Of a stretch of DNA of 64,000 bases, positions 14,655 to 47,186 are shown piece after piece. This DNA comes from Minisyncoccota bacterium (GTDB lineage: Bacteria > Patescibacteriota > Minisyncoccia > Phycocordibacterales > UBA9973), in NCBI GenBank assembly GCA_041660345.1, contig JBAZWP010000001.1, positions 1-64,000 of the forward strand. The letters run 5' to 3'. A program made the translations under genes and the position numbers. How positions within the stretch are numbered: the first letter of the stretch is position 1; each line of letters begins with the position of its first letter. The notes under the pieces are model-generated. The model was not told where the DNA came from. It did not search any database and saw nothing but the letters and a program-made list of their open reading frames with translations.

Positions 14655-14661
14655 TAATGTT

Positions 14662-19972: not shown

Positions 19973-19994
19973 ATGCTATCTCCTTATGAAACAC

Positions 19995-20023
19995 AATATA
20001 TACTAAAAAATAATTTTTGTCAA
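19995..20023 (-). promoter_or_regulatory. consensus sigma70 promoter cassette (TTGACA-17-TATATT)
   Basis: Minus-strand TTGACA at 20018-20023 and TATATT at 19995-20000; member of a repeated intergenic element family. Confidence 0.55.
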
Positions 20024-20334
20024 GCTTTAAAAAGTGTACCATCATCTTTTAAGTATACATCTATTAAAGCTGGTTGATCGAATGGGATAACAGTATGAGT
20101 AGTTTGTAACCAACCTAAAAAATCAATATACTTTTCTTTTTTAACTATTATATAGCCACCTTTTTTCATTAAATAATCTAATGGTTTTTCTATATCGTCT
20201 GTTAAAAATATACATGAGTCCTTTATACATTCCTTTTTTTTATTGTTCCAATATTTATACCAATATTTTTCTTCGCTTGTTTTAGCTTTTGGAACTAATT
20301 TTGAAGGAATTAATCTAACTAGTGTCGTTATCAT
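20020..20334 (-). CDS. hypothetical protein
   Basis: 104-aa ORF. Confidence 0.3.
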   Translation of the reverse strand: MITTLVRLIPSKLVPKAKTSEEKYWYKYWNNKKKECIKDSCIFLTDDIEKPLDYLMKKGGYIIVKKEKYIDFLGWLQTTHTVIPFDQPALIDVYLKDDGTLFKA

Positions 20335-20591
20335 TTTTGTTTAAAGTTACTACATGGATATTTTTTTAAAGCCGCCTCAATTGATACTGGGCAGTCTTTA
20401 CAAAGACTTGCACGTCGTTTATTTGGAACTACACATACTTTAGTGCATGTATCGTGATAGTCATAATCACAATCAAAGCATTCTTCATTGTCTTTGCTAT
20501 AAGTAATTCCTTTAGGACATCCATTAGTCTTATTAAATGCTACTTGTTTTTCTAATTTATCTAACTTTTTTAATGTCTTTTTGTAGTTCAT
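20331..20591 (-). CDS. Cys-rich small protein
   Basis: 86-aa ORF with 9 Cys. Confidence 0.3.
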   Translation of the reverse strand: MNYKKTLKKLDKLEKQVAFNKTNGCPKGITYSKDNEECFDCDYDYHDTCTKVCVVPNKRRASLCKDCPVSIEAALKKYPCSNFKQK

Positions 20592-20853
20592 GATTATCCC
20601 TTATTCTATGTAGTTCATCGAATATATTATTTGCATCATAACTATATAGCTGCATATTATGTAAAACATTATTTGCTAATTCTTTTTGTTTATCATTATA
20701 TTCAAAATGACTTAGTATTCTTTTATGTTCATCTTGTCGCATTTTATCTAAATGATATGTCGCTGGGTATTCCTCCATTGTTTTAACGACACTAATATAT
20801 GTATGTATTGCTACTAGTAGTTTTGCATAATCTGATGGTTCTGAGTATTTCAT
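20557..20853 (-). CDS. hypothetical protein
   Basis: 98-aa ORF. Confidence 0.3.
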   Translation of the reverse strand: MKYSEPSDYAKLLVAIHTYISVVKTMEEYPATYHLDKMRQDEHKRILSHFEYNDKQKELANNVLHNMQLYSYDANNIFDELHRIRDNHELQKDIKKVR

Positions 20854-21506
20854 GTATGAATGTCCACCACAATAATTCCATGATTGTCTGGGTTAGCCTT
20901 TTCATCACAAAGTCGCATAGTTCTAACTTCATCATCTGGTGTATGCATATAATTTGTAAAAGGAGGCACCACTAAATCTTTTGAGTATGCTTCATAAAAT
21001 TTAATTATACAACTAGAGTTATACAACATTTGACCGGTATAATCTTCTTTTTCTAATCCTTTTACAACATTAGCTGTTTTTTCAAAAACTTCAGCAAACT
21101 TTGTAGTTAACTCCCTTTGGAATTGTTTTATATCATATGGTAATATTAGTCTATTTTTGATAGCTTCTAAATTATCATTACCATAATGACTAAGTTCATA
21201 TATAATAATACTCCATGCTAAATCCAGTACATGTTCGTATCTATTATCCAATTTCATTATCTCGGTATAATATTCATCTCGACCTCGCCAATCATTTTCT
21301 TTTACAAGCTGTAACACTTCATTCTTTTTATTTACAATGATTGCGGGTTGATACCAATTATTTTCATCACAAAAGTCAATTGCATATGCTTCTTGAAAAT
21401 AATTGTTAACTGCTTCGCTAGTCCATTCAAAATCAGTTGTATTAACTAAAAAAAGATAATTTGCATGCATACTTTTACTCCAATTTATTAAATAGTAATA
21501 TATCAT
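20850..21506 (-). CDS. hypothetical protein, possible partner domain of the adjacent RNA ligase-like protein
   Basis: 218-aa ORF immediately downstream of the ligase-like ORF with overlapping ends. Confidence 0.3.
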   Translation of the reverse strand: MIYYYLINWSKSMHANYLFLVNTTDFEWTSEAVNNYFQEAYAIDFCDENNWYQPAIIVNKKNEVLQLVKENDWRGRDEYYTEIMKLDNRYEHVLDLAWSIIIYELSHYGNDNLEAIKNRLILPYDIKQFQRELTTKFAEVFEKTANVVKGLEKEDYTGQMLYNSSCIIKFYEAYSKDLVVPPFTNYMHTPDDEVRTMRLCDEKANPDNHGIIVVDIHT

Positions 21507-22080
21507 CCTTACAAAAATCTTTTAGTTTTTGTAACCAAATATTGCTCTTAATTTTAAACATTAAAGGTTGATTCTTCTTGGTTGATTTACATACAACACC
21601 TTCAAATGTCATATTTTGTAGTTTACTGTTTTTAACGCTATTGTAAAATTCATCTGTAATATTACCATGATATAACAATTTTGCTATATCAAAATCTTGA
21701 AACCATTCTATAAATTCCTTAGGTTGCATCATTCCTTTTTTATATAACGATACATCGAATAGGACTACATCAAAGTTATCATTTTCAACATGGTTTCCAG
21801 CAAATGATTTACTACCATAAAATTCAAAAAAACATACAGCTTCGGTTTGTCTTTTCTTTAAGAATAAAAGGTTTAAAAGTTCATACTTGGATTGTATAAT
21901 ATATACTGCTTTTCCTAAAATAGGTTCATTTTTATCAAGTAGTCGATGTCTTGTTCCAAATTTATAAAAGCCGTTTTTTCTACTCCATTCAGCTCTAATA
22001 TTAGAACCATCTATTTTATCAAAACAATAAAAAGGTTCACCCTTTACTATGTTTTTAGTTATTGAAGGATATTGTTTCAT
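21475..22080 (-). CDS. RNA ligase-like nucleotidyltransferase domain (Rnl2-like)
   Basis: N-terminal YPSITKN...CFDKIDGSNIR resembles the T4 Rnl2 YSSLEN...EKIHGTN motif I (KxDGxN lysine-adenylate site). Confidence 0.45.
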   Translation of the reverse strand: MKQYPSITKNIVKGEPFYCFDKIDGSNIRAEWSRKNGFYKFGTRHRLLDKNEPILGKAVYIIQSKYELLNLLFLKKRQTEAVCFFEFYGSKSFAGNHVENDNFDVVLFDVSLYKKGMMQPKEFIEWFQDFDIAKLLYHGNITDEFYNSVKNSKLQNMTFEGVVCKSTKKNQPLMFKIKSNIWLQKLKDFCKDDILLFNKLE

Positions 22081-22440
22081 TTAATCCTCGATAACTATTG
22101 TATGATTTGGATGAAGTTGTTCTTCGATTATTTCATCTATACTTGATCTATTTGAAAAGAATCTATCTTTAATATCAGGTAGAAACTGTTTTAAAATAGC
22201 TTTAGTTACTCTACCTTCAAAAATATCATGAGAGTATATGAAATGTTCTGAATGGTCTTCTATACGGAGTCTAGAAGGTATATACACATATGTACCTATA
22301 CCATGCCATCCCATAAAACCCTTACGACGAACTAGATAAACTTGACCTTTTTTTAAAATGACTTTACCTTCTGCACCAAAGTCTGTACCATGGGCATTTC
22401 GTGGTAAAGTTAACTGTTTATCAAGTAAAGTAAATTGCAT
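22081..22440 (-). CDS. hypothetical protein
   Basis: 119-aa ORF. Confidence 0.3.
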   Translation of the reverse strand: MQFTLLDKQLTLPRNAHGTDFGAEGKVILKKGQVYLVRRKGFMGWHGIGTYVYIPSRLRIEDHSEHFIYSHDIFEGRVTKAILKQFLPDIKDRFFSNRSSIDEIIEEQLHPNHTIVIED

Positions 22441-22441
22441 A

Positions 22442-22825
22442 TTACAACCTTATTAGTATATCGTTTATAATTTGATTCCAGCATTGATTCCATTCTATAT
22501 CACTTACATTAAGTGCTGCCTTAACTGGAGTATATACACGATCATCCTGATTAAAAACCTTAACTGTCTTTATTGCTCTAATCATAGCATACTTTGTATC
22601 TATTTTATCTATTTTATGATCACCTTTAATTAAAATTTCAAGAGGAGTTGGTGTTGTAGGTTTAATATAATGTCTTTTTATAAACTTCCTTACATTAGAA
22701 GGATCTGATTTAAGTTCATTTGCTATTTTAGAGTAACTATAACCTTTGTTAACTAGTTCTTGAACTTGATTTTTAAATAGCTTTTGAGGATAACCATTGA
22801 ATAGTATTTCATTCATATCTTCCAT
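22442..22825 (-). CDS. HTH protein sharing a C-terminal ALNVS domain with the 405-aa HTH-repeat protein
   Basis: N-terminal LVNKGYSYSKIANEL HTH-like module; C-terminus YTPVKAALNVSDIEWNQCWNQIINDILIRL paralogous to the C-terminus of 24347..25564. Confidence 0.4.
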   Translation of the reverse strand: MEDMNEILFNGYPQKLFKNQVQELVNKGYSYSKIANELKSDPSNVRKFIKRHYIKPTTPTPLEILIKGDHKIDKIDTKYAMIRAIKTVKVFNQDDRVYTPVKAALNVSDIEWNQCWNQIINDILIRL

Positions 22826-23262
22826 TCCCCTAAATATTCATAAAATATTTTAAGTACTCGAATAAGTAACTGATGATCTCTTATAAATACTTTATCATTT
22901 TCATTTTCCCACTGTTCAAAAAATATCTCTTTAAATAAATACCCCTCAGTAATATTAAGCTGAGGATTTGTATATTTTATAAAGAATCCTTTATCATAAT
23001 ATTTATTATGTGAATGCCATAGCTGCCCACCTTCGATTAACATTTCATTAGTATACCCCTCCAATTCTTTTAAAATATCATCTTCATGGTGAAGATAAAA
23101 ACAAATTTCCATTGTCCTATTATTTAGAGGTTCTTTACAAAGCTTGCACTTTATATAATAATCTTTTTCTACACTATCATAATGGTCATCGTCTTCTATA
23201 TAATTATGGCATTGACGACATTCAGGATATTCTGGATATCTAGCTAGTATATTACTTTTCAT
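22813..23262 (-). CDS. Cys/His-rich hypothetical protein
   Basis: 149-aa ORF with CRQCHNY...CKLCKEP. Confidence 0.3.
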   Translation of the reverse strand: MKSNILARYPEYPECRQCHNYIEDDDHYDSVEKDYYIKCKLCKEPLNNRTMEICFYLHHEDDILKELEGYTNEMLIEGGQLWHSHNKYYDKGFFIKYTNPQLNITEGYLFKEIFFEQWENENDKVFIRDHQLLIRVLKIFYEYLGEWKI

Positions 23263-23444
23263 ATTTTACCTTTTTTAAGTAATTTTTCTCGCACCTTATT
23301 TTTTAAATAAGGTAAATCTGTTGTTAAATTACACTTATATAATTTAGCAGCCTTAATCCAACATGGCATTTCTGAAATTTTAACTTTTCCAGAGCTGCAA
23401 TCAAAGTTGCCATTATTATAAAATTTACATTTCGTGCAATTCAT
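23259..23444 (-). CDS. Cys-rich small protein
   Basis: 61-aa ORF. Confidence 0.25.
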   Translation of the reverse strand: MNCTKCKFYNNGNFDCSSGKVKISEMPCWIKAAKLYKCNLTTDLPYLKNKVREKLLKKGKI

Positions 23445-23655
23445 TTTCTAAAAACTGTGTATAAGCAAATTCAAACGATAACTTTTCCTTAGCACATTTT
23501 GCAAAGTTATGTAAACTTACTTGGTTTCCATCCTCAAATAGTCTAATAACTTCATTAATAGTAATATCCTGTGCTCTTAATAGTTGACCATAGTATTCTT
23601 TATATATTTCTTTTTTTTCTGATTCTGGGTACACAACCATATTCCTCCGACCCAA
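23425..23655 (-). CDS. hypothetical small protein
   Basis: 76-aa ORF. Confidence 0.25.
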   Translation of the reverse strand: MGRRNMVVYPESEKKEIYKEYYGQLLRAQDITINEVIRLFEDGNQVSLHNFAKCAKEKLSFEFAYTQFLENELHEM

Positions 23656-24334
23656 CTAGTGGGGCTAAAGCGCCATGCATCAAAGCAACATTATCTGGTG
23701 TGGTAACGTATTGATAAGCAAGCGCTACTGCAATACCGAATGTATTACCACTATGACCTGGATCAATATCTACCAATTTTATCTGGTCCTCATAATCAAG
23801 TTTATGAAAATCTTTAATTGCGTCGCCTGTTTTTAGCTTATCAGCTATTTTAATAGCTTCTGTGCAACAAAACATTTCATAGTCTTCATAGTCAACCCTG
23901 AAATTACGGTTATTCTTTCTAAACTTATTAATTCGTTTTTGGAATACTTCTGGTAAATTTCTATAAGCTTCATCGAGCTTACTTTTATTTTCCTTGAACT
24001 TTTTCTTTTTATCGTCTTTCATTTTTTGTAGTTCTTTTTTATGTAGCGCATCTTGTTCTTTAGGTGTATTATACCTTACAGTATGTGATTCACCATTTGG
24101 TTTGATAATATCGATACCTCTGATAATACCACCCCATTCAGCATTACCATACAACCTAATTGTGTCACCAATCTCAGGTATTACATCACTTACATTATCC
24201 ACATAGCAACCAAGGCAATCAGTGCATGTAACACTATAACCACCATCGCTACTATGCCTAACTTCTTCTATGGTCTTTTTGGTATAATCAAGGTCAGTAC
24301 GCTTATACCTAGCTTGTTTAGCTGTAAGCATCAT
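23600..24334 (-). CDS. hypothetical protein
   Basis: 244-aa ORF with a Lys-rich central segment. Confidence 0.35.
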   Translation of the reverse strand: MMLTAKQARYKRTDLDYTKKTIEEVRHSSDGGYSVTCTDCLGCYVDNVSDVIPEIGDTIRLYGNAEWGGIIRGIDIIKPNGESHTVRYNTPKEQDALHKKELQKMKDDKKKKFKENKSKLDEAYRNLPEVFQKRINKFRKNNRNFRVDYEDYEMFCCTEAIKIADKLKTGDAIKDFHKLDYEDQIKLVDIDPGHSGNTFGIAVALAYQYVTTPDNVALMHGALAPLVGSEEYGCVPRIRKKRNI

Positions 24335-24346
24335 TTTTAAATACCC

Positions 24347-25564
24347 TTATATTTTATTAAATAGGTCACCGATTATAGCTTCCCAGTACATATCCCATTG
24401 GGCGTTTGATACATTAAGTGCAGCTCTGACAGGTATATATAACCCATGATTCTTATCGAGCACCTTAATTGATTTAATCGCCCTTAGTATAGCGTTTTTA
24501 ATTTGATCGCTATACTCAATTATATTATCAACCTTTGGCTCAACTTTAATTGGTTCAACCACCTTAATTGGTTCAACCTTAATTGGCTCAACCTTAATTG
24601 GCTCAACCTTAATTGGCTCAACCTTAATTGACTTTGGCGCAAATCGTCTTTTAGGTATATAGTTTATATTGTACTTTCTTATATAATCGCCTATTGTTGA
24701 TTGAGTACAATGAAAGTGCCTAGCTATTTTTTCTTGGCTAAGACCCTGGTTAACTAATTCAATCAATTCACCCTTGTCTATATTTAATACACCTCTTTGA
24801 TTAGTGTATTTAATGTTATGTTCCTTGATAAAAGTGCCTACGGTTGTAGCTGAAACGCGAAAATCGTTTGCTATGTCAGTTAGGTTATTACCCATCTTAA
24901 TTAAAAGCTCTATACGAGGTATATCACGTTCTGTAATTTTAGTGTGCTTATAATTTATATTATTGTCACGAATATACTTACGTATAGTTGAACTACTAAC
25001 ATCGAAGTATTTAGCTATATCATCTACACTAAAACCTTCATTAATGAGCTTGATAAGCTCACCATTATTTAAGTTATATGATATATTCTTTATAGGTATA
25101 CCATAATATTCAAGTATACTTTTAACTGCGGCGTGGCCTATTTTTTCAATCTTATTACCATGCTTTTCATCTAGGTACTTAGCAATCTCACTACATGTTT
25201 TATTTTGATTTACATATAATTCAATTGCTTCATCTTTTGAAATATACTTAATGAATCTGGGTATACTCTTTTGTTCCTTCATTAGTATACTTGTAATAAC
25301 AGCTGTAGACATCGAGTACTTCGTTGATGCAGCGTTAGTTCCAATTTTATCAATATCATCTAGTAATTGGTTATAACCAATGCACTCACGGATATTTGAA
25401 ATTTTAGACGTGTGTGGGATTTTATTGCTATTTATAAGAATTTTCCTCACATCAAAGTATGTTCTACCAAGCTTTTTTGCTATTTCATTAATATCCTTTG
25501 TTTCAGTTTCAAAAATTTCTACGATAGTTGGTTTTTTAGATTCAAATTTTACAGTTCTTACCAT
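24347..25564 (-). CDS. multi-HTH repeat protein with (PIKVE)n linker and C-terminal ALNVS domain
   Basis: Four ~50-aa internal repeats each containing an HTH-like module (xxSxxEIAKYL / DIAKYFDVSSSTIRKYI / DIANDFRVSATTVGTFI / KIARHFHCTQSTIGDYI); six tandem PIKVE pentapeptides; C-terminus paralogous to 22442..22825. Confidence 0.5.
   Translation of the reverse strand: MVRTVKFESKKPTIVEIFETETKDINEIAKKLGRTYFDVRKILINSNKIPHTSKISNIRECIGYNQLLDDIDKIGTNAASTKYSMSTAVITSILMKEQKSIPRFIKYISKDEAIELYVNQNKTCSEIAKYLDEKHGNKIEKIGHAAVKSILEYYGIPIKNISYNLNNGELIKLINEGFSVDDIAKYFDVSSSTIRKYIRDNNINYKHTKITERDIPRIELLIKMGNNLTDIANDFRVSATTVGTFIKEHNIKYTNQRGVLNIDKGELIELVNQGLSQEKIARHFHCTQSTIGDYIRKYNINYIPKRRFAPKSIKVEPIKVEPIKVEPIKVEPIKVVEPIKVEPKVDNIIEYSDQIKNAILRAIKSIKVLDKNHGLYIPVRAALNVSNAQWDMYWEAIIGDLFNKI
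24536..24632. repeat. 15-bp in-frame tandem repeat (~6 copies, unit tcaaccttaattggc)
   Basis: Direct reading of 24536-24632; encodes the (PIKVE)n tract of the HTH-repeat protein. Confidence 0.8.
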
Positions 25565-25586
25565 TGGTTTTCTCCATTTAAGATTG

Positions 25587-25937
25587 TTATTGTATTTCTT
25601 TTAGTTTTCTAATAAGTTTAATCTTTTTGTCAAAGTATGCTAACCATTCATCTCTTATTTGCATATATTCTAGATTGATAATATTGCTTAATGGTTTTTG
25701 AATTGTACTACCTGATTTTTCATAACATTCAAGTACTGTTCTTAATATATCTTCGTATTCTTTTATAGTTATATTGTAAAATTCATTTGTCTTTAAAATA
25801 TCCTTAATCCATAATATTTCTGTATCTGTTAGATTATATACATAATTATCCTTCAAAAAGCCATCTAATCTGTTAATAATTGTTTCATAATATTTTAGGC
25901 TATTATAATCAGTTAGTTTTAGTTTTACTTTATTCAT
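25587..25937 (-). CDS. hypothetical protein
   Basis: 116-aa ORF. Confidence 0.3.
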   Translation of the reverse strand: MNKVKLKLTDYNSLKYYETIINRLDGFLKDNYVYNLTDTEILWIKDILKTNEFYNITIKEYEDILRTVLECYEKSGSTIQKPLSNIINLEYMQIRDEWLAYFDKKIKLIRKLKEIQ

Positions 25938-25939
25938 TT

Positions 25940-26155
25940 TTAATCTTCATAAGCAGTGTAAAATTCAATTCCAAGTTTATCTGGATTTATATCTATAATG
26001 TTAAACATTAAAAATAAAGTATCTACGCAATTCACTTCTTTTTTCCATTTTTTAGCGTCTTTAATATTATCTACCCATTCTTCCCCAGACCAGTATTTAT
26101 CTGTATTAGTGGCAGTATCCGTTTTACCTATATAATACCTTTTTGAAGTTTTCAT
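25940..26155 (-). CDS. hypothetical small protein
   Basis: 71-aa ORF. Confidence 0.25.
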   Translation of the reverse strand: MKTSKRYYIGKTDTATNTDKYWSGEEWVDNIKDAKKWKKEVNCVDTLFLMFNIIDINPDKLGIEFYTAYED

Positions 26156-26487
26156 TCGGCAGGTCCTAAGCGATAGCCATCAGCCTTGATAAGATGCATT
26201 CTTACCATTTTATCGGTAGTGATACCTTGTACATAGTTGACAAAATCTAAATTCTCATCATAGCTACCTTTGGTAGCTGTGAAAAACTCTATAGCAGCCA
26301 ATGTTATAGGAATATCTTCAACATTGACCCATGCTGAAATCTGTGCTTTCCAGTCTTTTGGATCGCAAACCTTATTAAACGCTTTCAGTAAGTCGCCTCG
26401 AGTAACATCTTTACCATCGATGCGGCACACTAGTTGGTTGTTAATATCGTTTTCTTCTTCAACATTTAAATTTTTTGGGTTGTACAT
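26152..26487 (-). CDS. hypothetical protein
   Basis: Start moved to ATG 26487 (MYNPKN) directly behind AGGAGATtaac and the promoter cassette. Confidence 0.35.
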   Translation of the reverse strand: MYNPKNLNVEEENDINNQLVCRIDGKDVTRGDLLKAFNKVCDPKDWKAQISAWVNVEDIPITLAAIEFFTATKGSYDENLDFVNYVQGITTDKMVRMHLIKADGYRLGPAE

Positions 26488-26512
26488 GTTAATCTCCTTA
26501 TTTATGAAACAC

Positions 26513-26541
26513 ATTATAAACTAAAAAAATTAAAATGTCAA
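26513..26541 (-). promoter_or_regulatory. consensus sigma70 promoter cassette (TTGACA-17-TATAAT)
   Basis: Minus-strand TTGACA 26536-26541, TATAAT 26513-26518. Confidence 0.6.
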
Positions 26542-26544
26542 GCT

Positions 26545-27084
26545 TTATTTTACAGCACCTATTGGTATTTCCTCAAATGGAACTAGTAAATCACCTAATT
26601 TTTTAAGTGCCTCAATAATCCATATTATTTTTGATGAATATGAAAAAGGCGCATCATAATCCCATAAATCGATTATATCATTATCATAGTAGTCTTGTTC
26701 TGTTTGAACATGATAGTTTTCTTCAACTTCTTCAGCGCTGATTTCTTTTATATCTGAAATTATTCTTATAGCTTCGTCTTTATCATATTCTAAATAATTT
26801 TTGTCATCTAATAGCTTACCGAAAATATAATCATAATTCGATTCACAAAATCCTTTGAATCTTTTTGATCTTATCATGGTAAGGTCAACTCTAAATATTG
26901 CATGACCTATATCACCATAAATGATAAGGTAACCACCTTGATATGTCACATAGTATGAATATGTAATTGTACCTTCCTTGTGACAATATATAGTGTTACT
27001 AGTTATCTCGGTTAGTATATGGTCCTTAAATGCGTTTTTAGCAAATCCTTGTATTCGCTCGAGGTTATCTTTATTTACTATCAT
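26545..27084 (-). CDS. hypothetical protein
   Basis: 179-aa ORF. Confidence 0.3.
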   Translation of the reverse strand: MIVNKDNLERIQGFAKNAFKDHILTEITSNTIYCHKEGTITYSYYVTYQGGYLIIYGDIGHAIFRVDLTMIRSKRFKGFCESNYDYIFGKLLDDKNYLEYDKDEAIRIISDIKEISAEEVEENYHVQTEQDYYDNDIIDLWDYDAPFSYSSKIIWIIEALKKLGDLLVPFEEIPIGAVK

Positions 27085-27617
27085 ACTACTTGTTTAGCCT
27101 TAACAACTTTTACAAAAGACGCATCATATTTTAATGCACTTTTTATTTTTTTAACGATTTCTTTTCTATCACCTTTATAATTGTCGCATCGTTCTTTTAA
27201 GCACAATTCTAATTGTTTAACAAGTTTTGTTTTGTCAGGTTTATGAAAATCAGGTCCACTATACCTAGTAAGCCTCCAAGGTGAACTATCCTCGTTACAT
27301 TTTAAATAGCAAGTTTGGCATTGTGGACATTGATAACTGTATAAAGCACAAAGAGCGCATGTATCACCACCTCTGTCTAAATACCAAAAGCCTGCTTTAT
27401 TTATTTTATTTTGATTCCATTTAATATAAGATAAGTATAACCCAATTAAATCAGTGTCCTCATCATATTCTACTTTTTCTACAAATGTGTACATACCACC
27501 TAATATTTTATCTGTTTGATGTAATACTTCATTATTTATACTGAGTATTATTTTAGTTATCTTAGGAAGAGTTAATTTTATCTTAATTTTAGTTATTTCT
27601 TCAAATAATGTTTCCAT
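27081..27617 (-). CDS. Cys-rich SYIKWxQN-family protein (paralog 1 of 4)
   Basis: LSYIKWNQNKINKAGFWYLDRGGDTCALC...C...C motif block shared with three other ORFs. Confidence 0.4.
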   Translation of the reverse strand: METLFEEITKIKIKLTLPKITKIILSINNEVLHQTDKILGGMYTFVEKVEYDEDTDLIGLYLSYIKWNQNKINKAGFWYLDRGGDTCALCALYSYQCPQCQTCYLKCNEDSSPWRLTRYSGPDFHKPDKTKLVKQLELCLKERCDNYKGDRKEIVKKIKSALKYDASFVKVVKAKQVV

Positions 27618-27627
27618 CCAGATATCC

Positions 27628-38504: not shown

Positions 38505-38505
38505 A

Positions 38506-39081: not shown

Positions 39082-39096
39082 TGTTTTACCCTTTCA

Positions 39097-39555
39097 TTAG
39101 CAAATTTCAGAATCTAATCCCCACTTATCGCCTGTTCGATATATCACAACTCCACAAGTTCCACTTAAACCATGACCACTACCACCTAATACAGCCCATG
39201 CATTTGCAACTTCGCCGCATTCGCAAAGACCTAGTTTCTTTTGAATCTTGCTGTTACCACCTTCAGGTATGAATTTACGACCAAATTTGGTAGCCTCTGC
39301 ATCATCTAATAGCCAGCATAGTCCAAACTGACCATTTATGAGTTTTGCTGCCACTCGTCTTGTACCTTCATAGAGACCACAAAAATTAGCTTTACCACCA
39401 TTTTCAAGGATGACTGCACGAGTATCTGCAAGTCTTGCCGATAAATCAGACGCCCACTGAGTTAAAAACCCATCAGTATCACTTCTTTCAAATGATTCTT
39501 GGCTTCTGTTTCTTGATTGTTCTGCTTCTTGTCTGTATTCTTGTGCTGTTTTCAA
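39097..39555 (-). CDS. Gly/Cys-rich hypothetical protein in a locally GC-rich segment
   Basis: 152-aa ORF; GC content of 39100-39560 visibly higher than flanks; own consensus promoter and AGGAGATac RBS. Confidence 0.45.
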   Translation of the reverse strand: MKTAQEYRQEAEQSRNRSQESFERSDTDGFLTQWASDLSARLADTRAVILENGGKANFCGLYEGTRRVAAKLINGQFGLCWLLDDAEATKFGRKFIPEGGNSKIQKKLGLCECGEVANAWAVLGGSGHGLSGTCGVVIYRTGDKWGLDSEIC

Positions 39556-39581
39556 TTTGTATCTCCTTATTTATGAAACAC

Positions 39582-39610
39582 ATTATATACCAAAAAAAAT
39601 CATTTGTCAA
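39582..39610 (-). promoter_or_regulatory. consensus sigma70 promoter cassette (TTGACA-17-TATAAT)
   Basis: Minus-strand TTGACA 39605-39610, TATAAT 39582-39587. Confidence 0.6.
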
Positions 39611-39706
39611 GTCTTTTTTTAGCAATAAAAAAGGCTAGAACCTATCACTAATAACTGAGAATAAACCCAAATTACCGTGTGGTAAACTAGCCTTATAATT
39701 CTATAT

Positions 39707-40288: not shown

Positions 40289-40484
40289 TCTTTTTCTCCT
40301 TTTTTGAGATTTCTAATCCTGTTTCAACATCAATTACTTTACCTAGACATGGGCAAGGTAAAGTTATACCAGGTCCATTATAATTTCTTTTTAATACGCC
40401 CATACCATTACATTCTCTTTTAACGCACTGTGATTTAGGCATATGTTCAACTTCGTACCATTTACTTCTAATATATGCTTTCAT
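40275..40484 (-). CDS. Cys-containing small protein
   Basis: 69-aa ORF. Confidence 0.25.
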   Translation of the reverse strand: MKAYIRSKWYEVEHMPKSQCVKRECNGMGVLKRNYNGPGITLPCPCLGKVIDVETGLEISKKEKKSAKQ

Positions 40485-40510
40485 ATATTAAATATACACT
40501 TATTTAGATT

Positions 40511-40816
40511 TTAATTTAACTTTGCTTTAACTAATGATTGTCTAAAACTATCCTGTAAAACTTTACCACACCATAATCCTTTTTTTCGATTACTTACTTT
40601 ATGTGTTTTAGGATTAAGATATAAGTCTTCACCAGCTTTATACTTTAACCTTTTATCACAGTCTAATTCACAACTAGTAGCTTGATAAACTATACCTTCT
40701 TTTGTATAAAATCCGATCCACTTTTCATATATACCCATTTTACCTATTTTATTTTCAGGTAAATGTGGAATCATAATAGTATAATACAAAGCTGTTTTTG
40801 ATAATATATTACTCAT
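40511..40816 (-). CDS. hypothetical protein
   Basis: 101-aa ORF. Confidence 0.3.
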   Translation of the reverse strand: MSNILSKTALYYTIMIPHLPENKIGKMGIYEKWIGFYTKEGIVYQATSCELDCDKRLKYKAGEDLYLNPKTHKVSNRKKGLWCGKVLQDSFRQSLVKAKLN

Positions 40817-41262
40817 ATTTCTATTTCTATAGAGCGTCTTTCGACAATAGTTATTTCATATTTTGAAGGAAGAATTTCTAAAATGTCTTTTGCTCTTAAA
40901 TTATTATTTTTAAAGAGCTTATTAGCTAATCTTATTAAAGTAGCTTTGTCACATTTTTCAAATATTTCAGAAAAGTTATCTAGGAAATATTCACATTCAG
41001 GTTCATTAACTATAGACTCTAAGATAGGAACAGCGTCTAGTCCAAGCTGTAATAAATCAGACGACGCTTTAACAAGCCTGTCAGCATTACCTTTTTCCCT
41101 AAATTCTTTTATTTCGGGTATTCTTAGGATGGGTTCACTTTCTGTTATAAATTGAATACCTGAACGATGACCATAATAAATTGCATCTTTTTTAATAGCA
41201 TTCATTAAATCATTAGCTTTTTCTTCATTAGACTTAAATAAGCTTTTCAAAAATTTTAACAT
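40813..41262 (-). CDS. hypothetical protein
   Basis: 149-aa ORF. Confidence 0.3.
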   Translation of the reverse strand: MLKFLKSLFKSNEEKANDLMNAIKKDAIYYGHRSGIQFITESEPILRIPEIKEFREKGNADRLVKASSDLLQLGLDAVPILESIVNEPECEYFLDNFSEIFEKCDKATLIRLANKLFKNNNLRAKDILEILPSKYEITIVERRSIEIEI

Positions 41263-41280
41263 TATTTCTCCTCATCAAGT

Positions 41281-42159
41281 TTAAAACTTAGTTGACACCG
41301 TACCACCTATATACACACTTTTTAAATCTGTGTTAATAGTTGGTGAAATATATGTATCATGTAATAAACTTGTAAAGTTAATCAAATTAAATCCAATAGG
41401 TGTGATTGCTAAATAGACACCTTTATCATTAAAATCTTTAATAAATCCTTTAGATGCACCAATTCCTAATAATGATATTGATTCAGGTTGTAATACTTTA
41501 GCGACAAATTCAGGCCACGCTAATGTGACATCGAATATATTAACATAAATATTTGCAGAATTAGGAAAGGAAACGCCACCCATTAATGTAGGATTAAACA
41601 AGAGTAGATCAACGTTCTTTTGAACTTGCATATCCGTGATCTTAATGGGTAGCTTGTTTCCTTTATCATCTAATTCATATATTTCAGCTATAGTGTACTC
41701 AGCTGGCATATAAGGAAATCGACTATGCTTTGTAGTGTATATGTTTTCTCTAAACTTTTGATTTAAAGTATAATCAACATAACCTGTTGCAGCATCAGCA
41801 TACCCTTTTATATGAAAATCACTGAATGTTAATGAAGTTGGTGGGCACTTATTGTCTACACATTGACCTGATACATTTTGAGTTATAACTTGAGGCTTAC
41901 CATAATAAGTACTTTCAGCTTCGATATAGATTATCTTATCGATTGTTGCATTATACTTATCTGCAATATCTTGAATCTCTTTAGGTAATTTCCCTAATAA
42001 ATAAACAGGCTTATCTTTTACAATAGTATAAGTGCTTTCACCATATATAGGTTCAGGCTTATGGTCATAAAATATATAATAAACTAATCCAATATTCACT
42101 ACAACTGATAGTATAGTAAAACCTAACCAATATAAAAATGTATCACTTTTTATTTCCAT
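41281..42159 (-). CDS. N-terminally membrane-anchored hypothetical protein
   Basis: 292-aa ORF with TM helix WLGFTILSVVVNIGLVYYIF. Confidence 0.35.
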   Translation of the reverse strand: MEIKSDTFLYWLGFTILSVVVNIGLVYYIFYDHKPEPIYGESTYTIVKDKPVYLLGKLPKEIQDIADKYNATIDKIIYIEAESTYYGKPQVITQNVSGQCVDNKCPPTSLTFSDFHIKGYADAATGYVDYTLNQKFRENIYTTKHSRFPYMPAEYTIAEIYELDDKGNKLPIKITDMQVQKNVDLLLFNPTLMGGVSFPNSANIYVNIFDVTLAWPEFVAKVLQPESISLLGIGASKGFIKDFNDKGVYLAITPIGFNLINFTSLLHDTYISPTINTDLKSVYIGGTVSTKF

Positions 42160-42179
42160 ATATATGGTATTTTTAGCAA

Positions 42180-42398
42180 CTACTTAACCATTTTATTACT
42201 TATATCAGTAAATACACTAATCATTTCTTTTAATAAAACCTCTTGTCGATAATGTCTAACACACTCAAAGCATAATTGTTGCTTATCTTTATTATAGATA
42301 ATATCAAATTTATTCTTTAAGCATATCATACAACGATGATCACCACCTTGTGAAAATTCCCATTTCTCATTCCCTATCATAACAACATCATTAAACAT
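42180..42398 (-). CDS. Cys-containing small protein
   Basis: 72-aa ORF. Confidence 0.25.
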   Translation of the reverse strand: MFNDVVMIGNEKWEFSQGGDHRCMICLKNKFDIIYNKDKQQLCFECVRHYRQEVLLKEMISVFTDISNKMVK

Positions 42399-42399
42399 G

Positions 42400-42837
42400 T
42401 TAGCTCTTCTTACTTATTTGTTTTAAGTTTAGTTCTAGTTTATATAGTATACTATCGTGGTCACCTTTAATTTTAATAATAGCTTTCTTAAGGTCTTTTA
42501 GTAATGGTTTTTTATTATGATACTCGTACGCTGTATGCCAAGCACTACCATTATTACAATTATTTAATACACACTCATGACACTTATGAGAGTTATTACT
42601 TCCACTATAATGAAATGAACATAGTGGACATGTGCTATCTCTACAACCTAATTCCCAACTATCATTATCTATACATTCATCACTAGGATTATTTTGAAGC
42701 CACTTTATATAACTAATAATAAGTGCTATATCACCATCTTTTTTATTATGATACTTATATGTGTAATGAAGTAATTTATCGTATACGATTGGGTATTTAT
42801 CTGAAAGTTCTTCTATTCTTTTTATAAATTCATTCAT
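42400..42837 (-). CDS. Cys-rich SYIKWxQN-family protein (paralog 3 of 4)
   Basis: ISYIKWLQNNP...STCPLCSFH motif; tandem with paralog 4. Confidence 0.4.
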   Translation of the reverse strand: MNEFIKRIEELSDKYPIVYDKLLHYTYKYHNKKDGDIALIISYIKWLQNNPSDECIDNDSWELGCRDSTCPLCSFHYSGSNNSHKCHECVLNNCNNGSAWHTAYEYHNKKPLLKDLKKAIIKIKGDHDSILYKLELNLKQISKKS

Positions 42838-42839
42838 AA

Positions 42840-43307
42840 TTAATCCTTTACTAATTTCTTTAATATTTTTTCTGTCTTATTGATAAGCGCACGATGCTTT
42901 ATAGGTTTAATTTTACAAATAAACTCTTCTAATTTTTTAATCAAAACTCTTTTGTTATTATTATATTGTATTTCTGTCCAATGATTTAATTTATTACCAG
43001 TTTTAAAGTCTGTTTCAGTACAACAGCTAACTAAAGGGCAACTATTACATCTATAACTGATTTTAGAAAAAGAATTACCGTGAACAGCGCATAATGGGCA
43101 GCTGCGTTCATTACAACCAAGCGTCCATGTTCCACCACCTAAAAGGTTTATACTTCTTTTATATTTATTTTGTAACCATTTTACATAGCTTAAAATAAGT
43201 GCAGTGTCTTTATCTTTAAGATCGCTATATATATAATCTATTAAGTAACCTTCGTCTAAACGATACTTTTTTGAAAGCAACTTAATCTTAGTTATAAATT
43301 CATTCAT
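42840..43307 (-). CDS. Cys-rich SYIKWxQN-family protein (paralog 4 of 4)
   Basis: LSYVKWLQNKYK...RSCPLCAVHG motif. Confidence 0.4.
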   Translation of the reverse strand: MNEFITKIKLLSKKYRLDEGYLIDYIYSDLKDKDTALILSYVKWLQNKYKRSINLLGGGTWTLGCNERSCPLCAVHGNSFSKISYRCNSCPLVSCCTETDFKTGNKLNHWTEIQYNNNKRVLIKKLEEFICKIKPIKHRALINKTEKILKKLVKD

Positions 43308-43308
43308 T

Positions 43309-43563
43309 TTATTTTTCCTCGAATGCGGATAGTACTATATCTGTTCTAGATACTACCACATATTTTTTTTGAATACCATCCACTTCAATTAATACATGAT
43401 ATTCTTCACCAGCTTCTAAATCGCCTGAGTAATGGTTTTGTACCCAATCTTCTATAGCTTTATAGATATAAACATCAAAAGGTGATTCAACTTCAATATT
43501 GTGCCAGCTATCCCAGCTGTCTTCTACTTCCCAATCGATACCTATTTTAATTTGTTTATTCAT
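43309..43563 (-). CDS. hypothetical protein
   Basis: 84-aa ORF. Confidence 0.3.
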   Translation of the reverse strand: MNKQIKIGIDWEVEDSWDSWHNIEVESPFDVYIYKAIEDWVQNHYSGDLEAGEEYHVLIEVDGIQKKYVVVSRTDIVLSAFEEK

Positions 43564-43564
43564 T

Positions 43565-43813
43565 TTACACGCTTATATACGAATAATACCACGCAACATA
43601 ACCTAATCCAACTAAAATAAAACCAAATACTGCAACACATGTTAGTATATCTATAAATTCCATAGTAAATTTAACCTTACCCTCTTTTACATCATCACAA
43701 ATTACACATATACCAAAGCATATAAACATTAAGAAAAACCCAAGTGGATTTTGAAGTGTAAAACAAAATGCTAACCCACCAAAAAAAGCCGCATTACCTA
43801 CTCTATCAACCAT
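43565..43813 (-). CDS. small two-TM membrane protein (holin-like topology)
   Basis: 82-aa ORF with two hydrophobic helices. Confidence 0.3.
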   Translation of the reverse strand: MVDRVGNAAFFGGLAFCFTLQNPLGFFLMFICFGICVICDDVKEGKVKFTMEFIDILTCVAVFGFILVGLGYVAWYYSYISV

Positions 43814-44001
43814 AAATTCGCCCTCATTTTATTTTTTACATCTTCTATTATTAAATTACGTGCTTCATATAATGTTAATGTTATAGGATATACTATATCA
43901 AACGCACACCAATTAATGCAAAATGAATATGTAATACCATTAATATTATGGTAGCTTATACCACACCAGTCTAAATGGCATCCTATACATTTATCACTCA
44001 T
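43798..44001 (-). CDS. Cys/Trp-rich small protein
   Basis: 67-aa ORF. Confidence 0.25.
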   Translation of the reverse strand: MSDKCIGCHLDWCGISYHNINGITYSFCINWCAFDIVYPITLTLYEARNLIIEDVKNKMRANLWLIE

Positions 44002-44471
44002 CTCTTTTTCCTTTCCATCATTTTTACCACTTCATCAGGGACTATATCTTTAAGTGAACCACCGAAGTGAAATATTTCCTTAGCTGCAGTTGAACTAATA
44101 TAAGAGTATGCTGGATCTGTCATTATAAATATTGTTTCAATATCTTTATCTAGTTTTTTATTTATAAAAGACATGGTTGATTCAAATTCAAAATCAGCTA
44201 TAGAGCGCATGCCACGAATTAATATTGTAGCATTATGCTTTTTTGCAAGGTTAACTAAAAGCTCGTCTGATATTACAACTTCTATATAAGGCATACACCT
44301 TTTAATTATATCTACCCTTTCTTCAGGAGAGAAAAAGCATTTTTTACTAATGTTTTGAGCAACTGCTATAATAAGTTTATCGCATATTCTCAATCCACGT
44401 TTGATAATTTCAATATGACCATATGTTAATGGGTCAAATGAGCCAGCGTATATTGCTATTTTTTCAGACAT
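43998..44471 (-). CDS. coaD: phosphopantetheine adenylyltransferase
   Basis: IAIYAGSFDPLTYGHIEII matches the CoaD (H/T)xGH nucleotidyltransferase motif; ATILIRGMRSIADFEFE aligns with E. coli CoaD ATVLIRGLRAVADFEYE; ISSTAAKEI matches ISSSLVKEV. Confidence 0.85.
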   Translation of the reverse strand: MSEKIAIYAGSFDPLTYGHIEIIKRGLRICDKLIIAVAQNISKKCFFSPEERVDIIKRCMPYIEVVISDELLVNLAKKHNATILIRGMRSIADFEFESTMSFINKKLDKDIETIFIMTDPAYSYISSTAAKEIFHFGGSLKDIVPDEVVKMMERKKR

Positions 44472-44476
44472 TTATA

Positions 44477-44977
44477 TCACCTATATACTACTACAATTTT
44501 ATTTGATAAATGCTTATCTAAAATTTCTTTTACTTTAGCGGCATCTAAAAAACCATAACCAATACCCGGAAATGGTAATATTGCTGGGATATTTAATTCT
44601 TTTAGTTCAACACAACTCTGCTCGATTATATCAATATCAGCAATACATGCGAATCCAGGCACCCTATCACCAATTTTATATTTATGTCTTTGGTGTGGTA
44701 CGACTTCATCTAAACTAGATATTAACCTAAACCTAGGTTTAACAGGGAACATTATTAAGTCGCTATTGATTATATTAACATGTGGGTCACCTTCTTGCAT
44801 TAGTATTGAACCAACTTTAAAAGTGAGCCCTGGATACTTCTGGGATGCTTCATAAGCACATCCTCGACCCATAACAGCTTCACCATTCTTTTTAACAAAG
44901 CCATTAATGGTTATACAAGCATGTATCTTAAGCTTATCTTTTAAATCCCATAAGTCATGTTTTACGTATTGAGGCAC
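44477..44977 (-). CDS. macro-domain-like protein (putative ADP-ribose binding/processing)
   Basis: N-terminal ...ITINGFVKKNGEAVMGRGCA... glycine-rich motif typical of macro-like folds; assignment moderate. Confidence 0.4.
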   Translation of the reverse strand: MPQYVKHDLWDLKDKLKIHACITINGFVKKNGEAVMGRGCAYEASQKYPGLTFKVGSILMQEGDPHVNIINSDLIMFPVKPRFRLISSLDEVVPHQRHKYKIGDRVPGFACIADIDIIEQSCVELKELNIPAILPFPGIGYGFLDAAKVKEILDKHLSNKIVVVYR

Positions 44978-44979
44978 AA

Positions 44980-45267
44980 CTAATACTCACTACCGCTTTC
45001 ACATTTTTTCATTTCATTTTTAAATTGACAACTAACTGAATTTGGATCACTTGCTCTAACAATATAACAAATAACCTCATCGTTTTCATATCGCATTATT
45101 TCTGTATCTTCTAGAAAATTAGAATCTATACTAGCGACTATTTCTGTTTTGCCATTTAATTTATTTTCAGGTGATGTTGGTGTACTTGTTTGAATAGTAC
45201 AAGACATTAAAAACCAAACAGTAAGTAATGCTGCAGCTACTATTACTGTATCAACAAATTTTGTCAT
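44980..45267 (-). CDS. putative lipoprotein
   Basis: Signal peptide with lipobox-like LMSC (LLTVWFLMSCT). Confidence 0.4.
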   Translation of the reverse strand: MTKFVDTVIVAAALLTVWFLMSCTIQTSTPTSPENKLNGKTEIVASIDSNFLEDTEIMRYENDEVICYIVRASDPNSVSCQFKNEMKKCESGSEY

Positions 45268-45458
45268 TTTACTTTCTCCTTTTCAAGAAACGTTAAGCTA
45301 CCAAATACAACTACATTTGTATCTTTAAAGTCTTCTTTAAGTGCTTGTAAATTTTCAATAATAAATTCTAATTTAACATCCTGAGATGTTAAAGTAGTTA
45401 TGAAATTATACGTGTCTGGAATTACTTCTTTCTCAACCGTGTCGATATGTTCGTCCAT
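45264..45458 (-). CDS. hypothetical small protein
   Basis: 64-aa ORF. Confidence 0.25.
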   Translation of the reverse strand: MDEHIDTVEKEVIPDTYNFITTLTSQDVKLEFIIENLQALKEDFKDTNVVVFGSLTFLEKEKVK

Positions 45459-45711
45459 TTGATTTCCCTTTTAATGAAATTATATAGTCATCAACTGTAG
45501 AGCCACTAACGCTAATTGTAGAGTTTGGTATTTCATATTTATATGTACGTGCATCCTTAGAAGTTGTTGTTATACTGTGGTCATAAGAAATAAATCTTAG
45601 TTCATTATTTTCTAGTCGCACCTTAACACTTAAACCATCTTCTAAGTCTTGCTTTAATTTATCGAAGATTAGTTTAAGCTTTTTATACTTTTGCTTATAG
45701 CTTTCTTTCAT
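45433..45711 (-). CDS. hypothetical protein
   Basis: 92-aa ORF. Confidence 0.25.
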   Translation of the reverse strand: MKESYKQKYKKLKLIFDKLKQDLEDGLSVKVRLENNELRFISYDHSITTTSKDARTYKYEIPNSTISVSGSTVDDYIISLKGKSNGRTYRHG

Positions 45712-45914
45712 TTGTTTTCTTTAATACACTTTTTACATCTCTCTACTTGACCGTAATCCATATCACCTATAATTTCATGTGAAAAAGTCAAGTTTATTTT
45801 ATATAGCATACATAAAGGATTAACGTCTTTATAATCTAATTCAGGGCAGATATCCTTACAAAATCCTTTTAAATATTTTATCTTATGCGTCTTAGTGACA
45901 TTTTTAGTTGTCAT
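45708..45914 (-). CDS. Cys-containing small protein
   Basis: 68-aa ORF. Confidence 0.25.
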   Translation of the reverse strand: MTTKNVTKTHKIKYLKGFCKDICPELDYKDVNPLCMLYKINLTFSHEIIGDMDYGQVERCKKCIKENK

Positions 45915-47005
45915 TGTAATCCTTTCACTCCATCAATAATTTGTTTAATGCTTCTTAATGCACGAATAGACTCATCTTCTCGAATGATTTCTGCACTTGA
46001 TAATGAGCCATAGTGTTCTTCAAGACAGTTTAATAACAGTTCTTTAATTCTTTTTTCGTCAGGACCATATGGTAAACGCTTTGTTTCAATAGCGTTATGA
46101 TACATCCTTTCTAATTCAAGTTCTTTTTCTTTATACCAAATTTCAACATCTTCAATAGAGCGTTCGCCTCGACGAATTGTTTTAAGCTGTTCTCTATTTC
46201 GCTCAAGGTCAAGCGTTCCTTCGATAAGGATTTGTTCACATTCTAATGCAAGTCTTACAACATGATATAAAAACTTAACATCAAACCCTATTATCTTTAC
46301 TTGTTCAGCTCGTTTAGATCCTTCAACAGTTCTTTGATATAAATTTTTATACGCTTCTATATCAATATCATTAAGGTGGCTAAGTACTTGAATAGTACCA
46401 CGCTTTTCAAATTCAGATTGAACTTCACTTAATTGTAATGTATGTGGGATAAGCTTATCACCTTCAAATTCTATTAATTCGTTTAATCCTTCATGTTCTT
46501 TATCTTTAGCCTTATGAAGTTGGCTATGTGCATATCCTTTGAATTTTTGGAATGAACCAGCATGTAAGAAGATATGTCGATTTTCGCGTACCATTTCACC
46601 GACTCGTGTAATGTGAAGAATACAACGAGGTGGTACAAATAAAAGGTCAACCATGTTGGGGTTATTTTCCATACAAAGTTGGAAGCATCTTACAATACCA
46701 TACATTGTGAAGTCGTATTTTCTTTTTTCGTCCTTATTGACAACATGATGCTGTTGCCATGGATCTTTTTTATGTTCTTCTTCCTCTTTTTTCTTTGACC
46801 CAAATCCATTAATAACTCCAGCAGTATGCGGGAAAACAATGTATTTAGGTGGAATATAAAACCCATTAACATCCATATCGGACGTATCATCACTTACACC
46901 GTAGCTAACTGAACCTACAATAGCTTCGTAGGCGATGCTACCAGGAATATATGATGGTGGGTTAATTAACCCAAGCTTCTGAATTCGTTGTACTGTCGAT
47001 GGCAT
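45911..47005 (-). CDS. Pol-beta superfamily nucleotidyltransferase
   Basis: GSVSYGVSDDTSDMDV matches the GS-x(9-13)-DxD minimal nucleotidyltransferase motif; 364 aa. Confidence 0.5.
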   Translation of the reverse strand: MPSTVQRIQKLGLINPPSYIPGSIAYEAIVGSVSYGVSDDTSDMDVNGFYIPPKYIVFPHTAGVINGFGSKKKEEEEHKKDPWQQHHVVNKDEKRKYDFTMYGIVRCFQLCMENNPNMVDLLFVPPRCILHITRVGEMVRENRHIFLHAGSFQKFKGYAHSQLHKAKDKEHEGLNELIEFEGDKLIPHTLQLSEVQSEFEKRGTIQVLSHLNDIDIEAYKNLYQRTVEGSKRAEQVKIIGFDVKFLYHVVRLALECEQILIEGTLDLERNREQLKTIRRGERSIEDVEIWYKEKELELERMYHNAIETKRLPYGPDEKRIKELLLNCLEEHYGSLSSAEIIREDESIRALRSIKQIIDGVKGLQ

Positions 47006-47151
47006 AGTTTAGTCCTTTTAGTTTGAGCTTCTCGAATTTTATTAATGTGATTTTCAATAGCCCTATTAAGTCTATTATCGACAAAAAGGGGTATTGGTTC
47101 ACCTTTTAAAGCTCTGTGAGCGAAAAATTTAATTTTACCATATCTCATAAT
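46966..47151 (-). CDS. hypothetical small protein (start uncertain)
   Basis: The track start at 47166 lies inside the promoter -10; ATG at 47151 (MRYGK) is the first possible start downstream of the promoter. Confidence 0.2.
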   Translation of the reverse strand: MMRYGKIKFFAHRALKGEPIPLFVDNRLNRAIENHINKIREAQTKRTKLCHRQYNEFRSLG

Positions 47152-47157
47152 GCATGT

Positions 47158-47186
47158 AATATACAATAAAAAAAGTAAAATGTCAA
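47158..47186 (-). promoter_or_regulatory. consensus sigma70 promoter cassette (TTGACA-17-TATATT)
   Basis: Minus-strand TTGACA 47181-47186, TATATT 47158-47163. Confidence 0.5.

Follow-up and report, generated by a model that had tools for sequence, protein, structure and literature searches.

We analysed a 64,000-nt stretch of DNA (hereafter, the window) that represents nearly all of one metagenomic contig of 64,167 nt, has a G+C content of 30%, and carries a family of short promoter cassettes, in which consensus -35 and -10 hexamers are followed by a leader and a Shine-Dalgarno (SD) sequence. The window starts with a plus-strand gene block that extends up to ~17.7 kb and encodes a 907-aa tail sheath; from 17.7 to 64 kb there is a minus-strand array of ~100 open reading frames (ORFs), mostly small and mostly without an assigned function. 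The enzymes encoded in the array include an RNA ligase, a metallophosphoesterase, an RlaP-like nucleotidyltransferase, an S-adenosylmethionine (SAM) synthetase, an S-adenosylhomocysteine (AdoHcy) hydrolase, a radical-SAM enzyme and sugar-nucleotide enzymes, and the array also has a Band7/MVP-like gene pair. The nearest cultured relatives of the sheath belong to jumbo phages, i.e. a Tunturiibacter phage (308 kb) and Bacillus phage G, and an uncultured 485-kb phage is also among its nearest relatives. We consider the window a fragment of a large myophage, probably of the jumbo class, and the array its accessory arm; judged by its sheath, the phage is not T4-like. No DNA-level relative of the window was found among 50,697 phage records by megablast and blastn, and neither Rfam families nor tRNA genes were found in it.

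A preliminary description of this DNA had listed six near-identical copies of a ~55-bp element on the minus strand and a seventh consensus promoter on the plus strand. All seven sites were found at the positions reported for them (each site is named here after the 5′ nucleotide of its -35 hexamer), and the plus-strand site, 14626, is indeed an exact match, with TATAAT at a 17-nt spacing. The six minus-strand elements are, instead, four core copies (20023, 26541, 37117 and 39610), one promoter-only relative (47186) and one weak member (33819). The core copies are alike over ~57 nt, from just 5′ of the -35 to the SD, and their layout is (A/T)AAGC-TTGACA-N6-7-TTTTTT(T)AGTA-TATAAT-GTGTTTCATAA(A)TAAGGAGAT. 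A profile was built from the best four copies and searched over the window, and an alignment and an unbiased repeat search were used alongside; the core copies had expectation (E) values from 1e-12 to 1e-15 with this profile, and in the unbiased search these four made up D1, the dispersed family ranked first.

Precisely, the first core cassette (19978..20028, on the minus strand as are the next three) has its -35 at 20018-20023, a 17-nt spacer, the -10 TATATT at 19995-20000, GTGTTTCATAA and the SD GGAGAT at 19978-19983 (profile E 2.6e-12); the upstream ORF, 20020-20334, ends within its -35, and a 168-aa ORF follows with the ATG at 19972. The second (26492..26546; E 1.1e-13), which is the reference copy of family D1, has its -35 at 26536-26541, TATAAT at 26513-26518, GTGTTTCATAAATAA and the SD at 26492-26497, and precedes a 111-aa gene with its ATG at 26487. 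In the third (37068..37122; E 6.4e-14), with the -35 at 37112-37117 and TATAAT at 37089-37094, the leader reads GC-TTTCATAAAATAA, with a 1-nt deletion, and the SD at 37068-37073 is followed by the ATG at 37060 of a 92-aa gene. The fourth (39561..39615; E 4.3e-15) shows the A-tract AAAAAAAGAC followed by the -35 at 39605-39610, TATAAT at 39582-39587, GTGTTTCATAAATAA and the SD at 39561-39566, and it precedes a 152-aa gene (phrog_5855) that begins with a TTG at 39555.

The pattern TTGACA-N15-19-TATAWT had six exact matches in the window (14626 on the plus strand; 20023, 26541, 37117, 39610 and 47186 on the minus strand) against 0.65 expected, and none of 100 shuffled sequences reached six. The spacer is 17 nt in all six, and the -10 is TATAAT in four of them and TATATT in two; hence the claim of perfect or near-perfect sigma70 consensus holds for these sites, 14626 included, and is too strong for 33819, whose -10 is a weak TATATA at 18 nt. 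The enrichment is limited to the perfect class: with up to 2 mismatches there were 29 sites against 31 expected, and general scans for sigma70 promoters gave counts at or below the shuffled expectation (95 vs 114 and 108 vs 113), their matches at 11-12 of 12 positions being exactly the sites named here. All the exact sites are on the coding strand and at gene boundaries, with the -10 located 7-34 nt before the start codon. They lie in, or at the edge of, intergenic gaps that total ~2% of the window. Upstream of the hexamers, at about -38 to -46, there is an A-rich stretch, which is a clear A-tract at 39610, 47186 and 14626. Along the co-directional array the promoters follow each other at intervals of 2.5-10.6 kb, with a spread of ~27 kb. 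The TGA contained in the -35 TTGACA doubles as the stop codon of the upstream ORF at 20023, 33819, 37117 and 47186 (20018-20023, 33814-33819, 37112-37117 and 47181-47186), four of the six minus-strand sites, where no nucleotide separates gene end and promoter.

Likeness among the copies extends beyond the hexamers and is unevenly distributed. Over the 34 nt compared in five copies (5 nt upstream through the -10), 23-29 positions are identical between copies; within the spacer, the first 7 bases agree at 0-6 of 7 positions and the last 10 at 7-10 of 10, the half next to the -10 being fixed as a T-tract followed by AGTA. Differences left by recent copying should be evenly distributed; as the variation is concentrated in the 5′ 7 bases of the spacer, the pattern would reflect selection on the start-site region and on the half of the spacer next to the -10. 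The 20-mer flank TTATGAAACACATTATATAC, which had been described as common to all the copies, was found in three of them with at most one mismatch (0.07 expected) and not in all six; the fourth core copy has a 1-nt deletion in it. The genes adjoining the cassettes are not paralogous to each other and are unrelated, therefore the repeated unit is a regulatory element and not a gene-plus-promoter segment, and we ruled out a duplication of genes together with their promoters. Spread of the cassette itself by duplication, as suggested in the preliminary description, is not clearly favoured by this pattern, and conservation past the hexamers looks like constraint rather than recent copying.

As for translation signals, all six minus-strand sites but 47186 carry the SD GGAGAT, which precedes the start codon by 2-7 nt; of the five genes that follow these SDs, four begin with ATG and the one after 39610 with TTG. 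The proposed fusion of promoter, strong SD and ATG is thus correct for most of the sites and must be amended for 47186 and for the gene after 39610. In the whole window an SD match of at least 6 nt was present at only 15 of 134 ORF starts, and the list includes four cassette genes with an SD; the remaining one of the five (start 26487) is missing from it because the table took a longer ORF with start at 26514, and it carries the same TAAGGAGAT. The exact SD AAGGAGAT occurs nine times, five of which at cassette genes. The first purine at a normal distance past the -10 is the A of CATAA, 8 nt downstream, which gives a predicted leader of 19-24 nt. No stem-loop was found in the cassettes, as DNA folds of all six were no better than those of shuffled sequences (z from -0.65 to +0.70).

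The remaining sites share less with the core family. The promoter-only relative (47158..47191, minus strand; profile E 0.005) consists of AGC-TTGACA at 47181-47186, a spacer with the same T-tract and the -10 TATATT at 47158-47163; its profile match is confined to positions 3-36, i.e. the promoter half, and the shared leader and SD are absent. An in-frame ATG at 47148, 10 nt past the -10, opens a 60-aa ORF (46966-47148), within which the RlaP-like gene begins (start 47005). The separate plus-strand promoter (14616..14664; profile E 12), with its A-tract, -35 at 14626-14631 and -10 TATAAT at 14649-14654, has the hexamers and the upstream A-tract in common with the family and nothing else; the ATG of the first small ORF, 14662, is 7 nt past the -10 and no SD precedes it. 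With such near-zero leaders, the promoters at 14626 and 47186 are candidates for producing leaderless or near-leaderless mRNAs. In the weak member (33774..33819, minus strand; profile E 0.69) the -35 TTGACA at 33814-33819 is separated by 18 nt from the -10 candidate TATATA at 33790-33795, which is without the final T, and the SD GGAGAT is at 33774-33779; hence only the -35 and the SD are common with the core family. From the ATG at 33771 it heads an 85-aa ORF, the Band7 gene and the MVP-like gene. The G+C-rich MVP-like ORF is thus not directly preceded by a cassette; it is the third gene, behind a hairpin, in the unit of this weakest member. G+C-rich hairpins flank the MVP-like gene at 29785-29813 (13-bp stem) and ~32250-32285 (~10-bp stem); they are without a U-tract on the coding (minus) strand and may be RNA 3′-end or processing structures rather than classic terminators.

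It had been proposed that the cassettes define transcription units, and in this form the proposal was not supported. A terminator-like hairpin was found upstream of one cassette only, 39610, and is separate from it: it is a long hairpin, AAGGCUAG...CUAGCCUU, with a U-tract (39626..39694, minus strand), directly upstream of the cassette, with a folding energy of -22.9 kcal/mol and a z of -2.9 (2 of 200 shuffled sequences fold as well), and may be an intrinsic terminator at the end of the 47186 unit. At the other cassettes, the stop codon of the preceding gene adjoins the cassette or lies within it. Since most cassettes abut the preceding gene without a terminator, we consider that they would re-initiate or boost transcription that reads through from upstream, rather than be insulated operon heads, and that the transcription units are probably nested and additive.

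Taken together, we consider it likely, with a probability of about 0.78, that the cassettes are promoters of the host primary sigma factor (sigma70/sigmaA type) with a leader and a strong SD, heading co-directional blocks of genes. Host RNA polymerase with its primary sigma factor would read the cassettes and would initiate at the A located ~8 nt past the -10, producing the A/U-rich leader of predicted length given above, in which UAAGGAG would pair with the 3′ end of the 16S rRNA 4-8 nt before the start codon. In this way the gene at the head of each block would be both strongly transcribed and strongly translated, and the downstream genes would follow through overlapping stop and start codons. 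Conservation from about -47 to about +15 corresponds roughly to the footprint of the polymerase and may be read as selection for maximal competitiveness against host promoters, as for the early promoters of T4, possibly reinforced by exchange between copies. Expression early in infection is plausible.

Some observations weigh against this interpretation. None of the sites has a TGn extended -10, the bases preceding the hexamer being AGTA, GGTA or ATTG. The distal 17 kb of the minus-strand array (47187-64000), which carries SAM-cycle, radical-SAM, sugar-nucleotide and HisF-like genes, is without any consensus promoter, therefore read-through or another class of promoters must serve it. Among phage records, IMG/VR, GTDB and the JGI metagenomes there were no close relatives on which conservation at orthologous sites could be tested. 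Lastly, start sites, strength and timing are inferred from sequence, and the term host sigma70 rests on the universality of the consensus.

Of the other explanations, the one that survives best relates the cassettes to the promoter-early stem-loop (PeSL) cassettes of T4-type myophages (Arbiol 2010, PMC2839356; Comeau 2014, PMC4122927). The ~57-nt direct repeats would be homology patches for a recombination that inserts, deletes or shuffles the modules of ORFans between them, and their promoter activity would make the shuffled modules expressible, so that this explanation is compatible with the host-promoter reading and adds a second role to it; we hold it possible, although clearly on the less probable side. 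The four repeats have the same orientation, with spacings of 6518, 10576 and 2493 nt, they adjoin unrelated genes that are mostly without a family assignment, and their order of elements (A-rich upstream DNA, -35, T-tract in the spacer, -10, SD and start codon) matches the PeSL layout (PMC2839356). Moreover, a search of IMG/VR with the promoter-half pattern returned 72 matches that were mostly classic PeSL motifs of T4-like myophages, of the form GGGGTC-TTGACA-GACCCC-TTTTTTT-ATTG-TATAAT, in which a terminator hairpin carries the -35 in its loop and has the T-tract of the spacer as its tail. However, the defining stem-loop is missing from the cassettes, as their folds show, no closely related genome was found that could reveal indels bounded by cassettes, and an identity of 23-29 of 34 positions, with the 5′ half of the spacer differing, makes them ill suited to homologous exchange. 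A second recurrent PeSL-like motif, CCACC(A/T)C(T)CC-TTGACA-GGGGTGG-TTTTTT-ATTG-TATAAT, whose stem encloses the -35, was seen in marine viral contigs (L110, L207, L220, L223, L244, L252, L254, L255 and L260), one of which, the 2.6-kb L110, has two copies 674 nt apart.

A regulatory role of the conserved bases (TTTTTTTAGTA in the spacer and GTGTTTCATAA near the start site) is unlikely; they would be bound by a phage or host regulator, or recognised in the RNA of the shared leader by a factor such as a RegB-like nuclease cutting GGAG, and the whole set would be switched together. The conservation is uneven and reaches across the start site and the leader in four copies, the window encodes helix-turn-helix (HTH) proteins (17896-18357 and 24347-25564), and the SD AAGGAGAT is concentrated at cassette genes. 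On the other hand, the conserved part has neither dyad symmetry nor a direct sub-repeat, no encoded protein is linked to the site, and a further copy on a second contig (see below) retains the promoter and GTGTTTCATAA and not the remaining leader or the SD. Even less probable, and in our opinion very unlikely, is that a phage-encoded sigma factor or a modified polymerase reads the cassettes as a middle or late class. Large phages commonly have their own sigma factors or polymerases, and only 64 kb of this one are visible; yet the hexamers and their spacing are the exact consensus of the primary sigma factor, from which phage-specific classes normally depart, and the proteins of the window that were scanned included no sigma factor or RNA polymerase, the weak region-4-like HTH matches being in one multi-HTH protein. 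Finally, that the sites are functionless chance matches is a negligible prospect: weak promoter-like matches are abundant at 30% G+C, but exact ones are ~9-fold over expectation and unequalled in the shuffled sequences, are all co-oriented with genes at their boundaries, and four copies share ~57 nt.

Outside the window, the strict cassette pattern had no matches in IMG/VR or in the JGI metagenomes, and the sheath protein had none in IMG/VR. A further full copy of the promoter was found on a second contig of the same metagenome-assembled genome (MAG), represented by a 1-kb JGI contig (L153/L266) and a Logan contig (L265). It reads TAAAATAAAGC-TTGACA-tttgattttttttagta-TATAAT-GTGTTTCATAAg and is intergenic and co-oriented, with a differing leader and SD and unrelated flanking genes; because the leader differs, the conserved module is the promoter part, from about -47 to +5. 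We initially considered L153 as an independent genome with a full cassette and rejected this, as the protein flanking the copy, MFA5999990.1, is WC783_03375 and the window includes WC783_00175 and WC783_00295, i.e. the same MAG; this is another copy and not conservation across genomes. An RNA ligase is encoded just upstream of it (L265, 466-1077), and an intein splicing domain is among the Pfam matches of this ligase. In L001, the closest relative found, whose sheath is 55% identical, TTGACA-17-TATAAT also occurs, at two sites, of which one is intergenic and has a TG-extended -10; the cassette is absent.

Other candidates were discarded. A scan of GTDB with TTGACA-N17-TATAWT-G-N1-2-TTTCATAA gave 79 single matches, mostly in Clostridia, whose spacers and leaders are unrelated, therefore we considered them ordinary consensus promoters that happen to carry TTTCATAA. 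The pattern AGC-TTGACA-N17-TATAWT-GTGT had 29 matches in IMG/VR, in unrelated phages without protein similarity to the window. The family of the gene that follows 39610 is widespread (131 matches), and the loci retrieved, L084-L087 (46-53% G+C), belong to unrelated phages without a similar upstream promoter. The locus L150, which encodes MetK and an AdoHcy hydrolase 56-58% identical, is from a bacterium of 48% G+C and was considered irrelevant.

The same searches provided a lead on the host. NCBI places both the contig of the window and the second cassette-bearing contig in one MAG, with locus tags WC783_, under the label Candidatus Paceibacterota. The promoter-half pattern had 102 matches in metagenomes, of which the best non-self one (L152/L141/L262) is in a bacterial fragment of 31-32% G+C with two tRNA-Ala genes and the cluster S13-S11-S4-rpoA-L17, and the RpoA of L262 shares 68% identity with proteins named Candidatus Paceibacterota, Wolfebacteria and Nomurabacteria. 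Its promoter, AATAAAGCTTGACAaatattattttttagtaTATAATGTGT, agrees with cassette 20023 at 20 of 29 positions outside the search pattern, which is the best non-self value among 174 matches (mean 11.7, standard deviation 2.5), the cassettes agreeing with each other at 13-20. In tetranucleotide similarity to the window L001 ranked first, and a Paceibacterota contig from the same sample ranked sixth of 201. On this basis we advance, as a tentative lead that we regard as more doubtful than credible, that the phage infects Paceibacterota (candidate phyla radiation, CPR, or Patescibacteria), and that the cassette reflects, or was exchanged with, the strong-promoter grammar of the host; the match of AATAAAGCTTGACAaatattattttttagtaTATAATGTGT is no more than suggestive. 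Metagenomes have led to predictions of phages of CPR bacteria, of which no isolate existed at the time of a 2024 survey (PMC11310336).

Against a CPR host, a fragment from Clostridia outranks the Paceibacterota contig in tetranucleotide similarity, and the 20/29 match is only ~3.3 standard deviations out, one outlier among 174 candidates. The extended motif occurs once in 21 kb of the L262 genome and was not found in the 42 kb of two other Paceibacterota, L267 and L269 (~63 kb scanned in all, from three lineages), hence its generality in Paceibacterota is not supported. No protein similarity connects the loci, and the nearest relatives of the sheath are jumbo phages of ordinary-sized hosts. 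Besides, the binning of phage contigs is unreliable. The AATAAAGCTTGACAaatattattttttagtaTATAATGTGT promoter itself (L262, 6887-6925 on the minus strand; L152, 82-112; L141, 742-772) adjoins the two tRNA-Ala genes and precedes two small unannotated genes of 104 and 177 aa, the latter encoding an N-terminus that resembles a signal peptide; promoter and small genes could be an inserted module.

Other repeats were observed in the array. Four paralogues of ~150-180 aa are encoded at 27081-27617, 34151-34621, 42400-42837 and 42840-43307, with no Pfam match where scanned, and two of them are each two genes upstream of a promoter (26541 and 33819). Within the 405-aa multi-HTH protein (ORF 24347-25564, HTH from 24347-24564 onward), ~5 tandem copies of the 15-nt unit ACCTTAATTGGCTCA at 24561-24635 encode a 5-residue peptide repeat. 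In the distal array, 63353-63428 and 63429-63504 are a 76-nt tandem duplication, 99% identical, that covers an intergenic gap and the 3′ part of the minus-strand ORF 63413-63589.

Promoters of this sort are common in large lytic phages, and we consider the family useful rather than surprising. The cassettes give a transcription map for an otherwise unannotatable array of ~100 orphan genes and flag those that the phage would want most strongly expressed, and they represent a compact promoter-plus-ribosome-binding-site part of 57 nt whose non-hexamer positions (the spacer T-tract and the start-site region) may be of interest for promoter strength. Their wider value hinges on the host lead. To our knowledge, the promoters of CPR bacteria have not been described; if the host were a member of Paceibacterota, the window would belong to a large myophage of an ultra-small episymbiont, and the cassettes would be the first candidate strong promoters, and the first concrete handle on promoter architecture, for the CPR.

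Several known systems resemble the cassettes. The early promoters of the T5 and T7 A1 type have near-consensus sigma70 elements and A/T-rich spacers, and sequence past their start site adds strength; those promoters are individually distinct, whereas the cassettes are a family sharing ~57 nt inclusive of leader and SD. The host-takeover genes of the Bacillus phage SPO1 have promoters and ribosome-binding sites typical of high expression (PMC6873191). They are small early genes, clustered in a number of short operons that each have their own strong sigmaA promoter and strong ribosome-binding site, and the array likewise has small genes in short operons headed by such elements; the SPO1 module, however, is a terminal block of 12.4 kb, while here the promoters are distributed over ~27 kb, and the genes are without homology to those of SPO1. 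The genes that are first after the cassettes had no informative family matches.

The early promoters of T4 carry additional consensus beyond the hexamers (Hinton 2010, PMC2988021), and its 'uber' early promoters (UP/-35/TGn/-10) have, like the cassettes, near-consensus elements for the host sigma factor, extra conserved positions and A/T-rich upstream DNA; they are also used many times along regions of small non-essential genes, where they out-compete host promoters. They differ in the TG extended -10, which is in none of our copies, and in the extra conserved positions, which here are the spacer T-tract with AGTA and GTGTTTCATAA after the -10. With PeSLs the cassettes have in common a repeated intergenic motif with A/T-rich upstream DNA, consensus -35 and -10, SD, start codon and ORFan flanks, and even a T-tract at the same place of the spacer. 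The T-tract of PeSLs is the tail of a terminator and here stands alone, with neither stem-loop nor terminator, and since the layout is present without the stem the cassettes cannot be filed as PeSLs. They belong, nevertheless, to a well-known kind of phage regulatory element, of which they are a variant without the PeSL stem-loop and without the TG extended -10.

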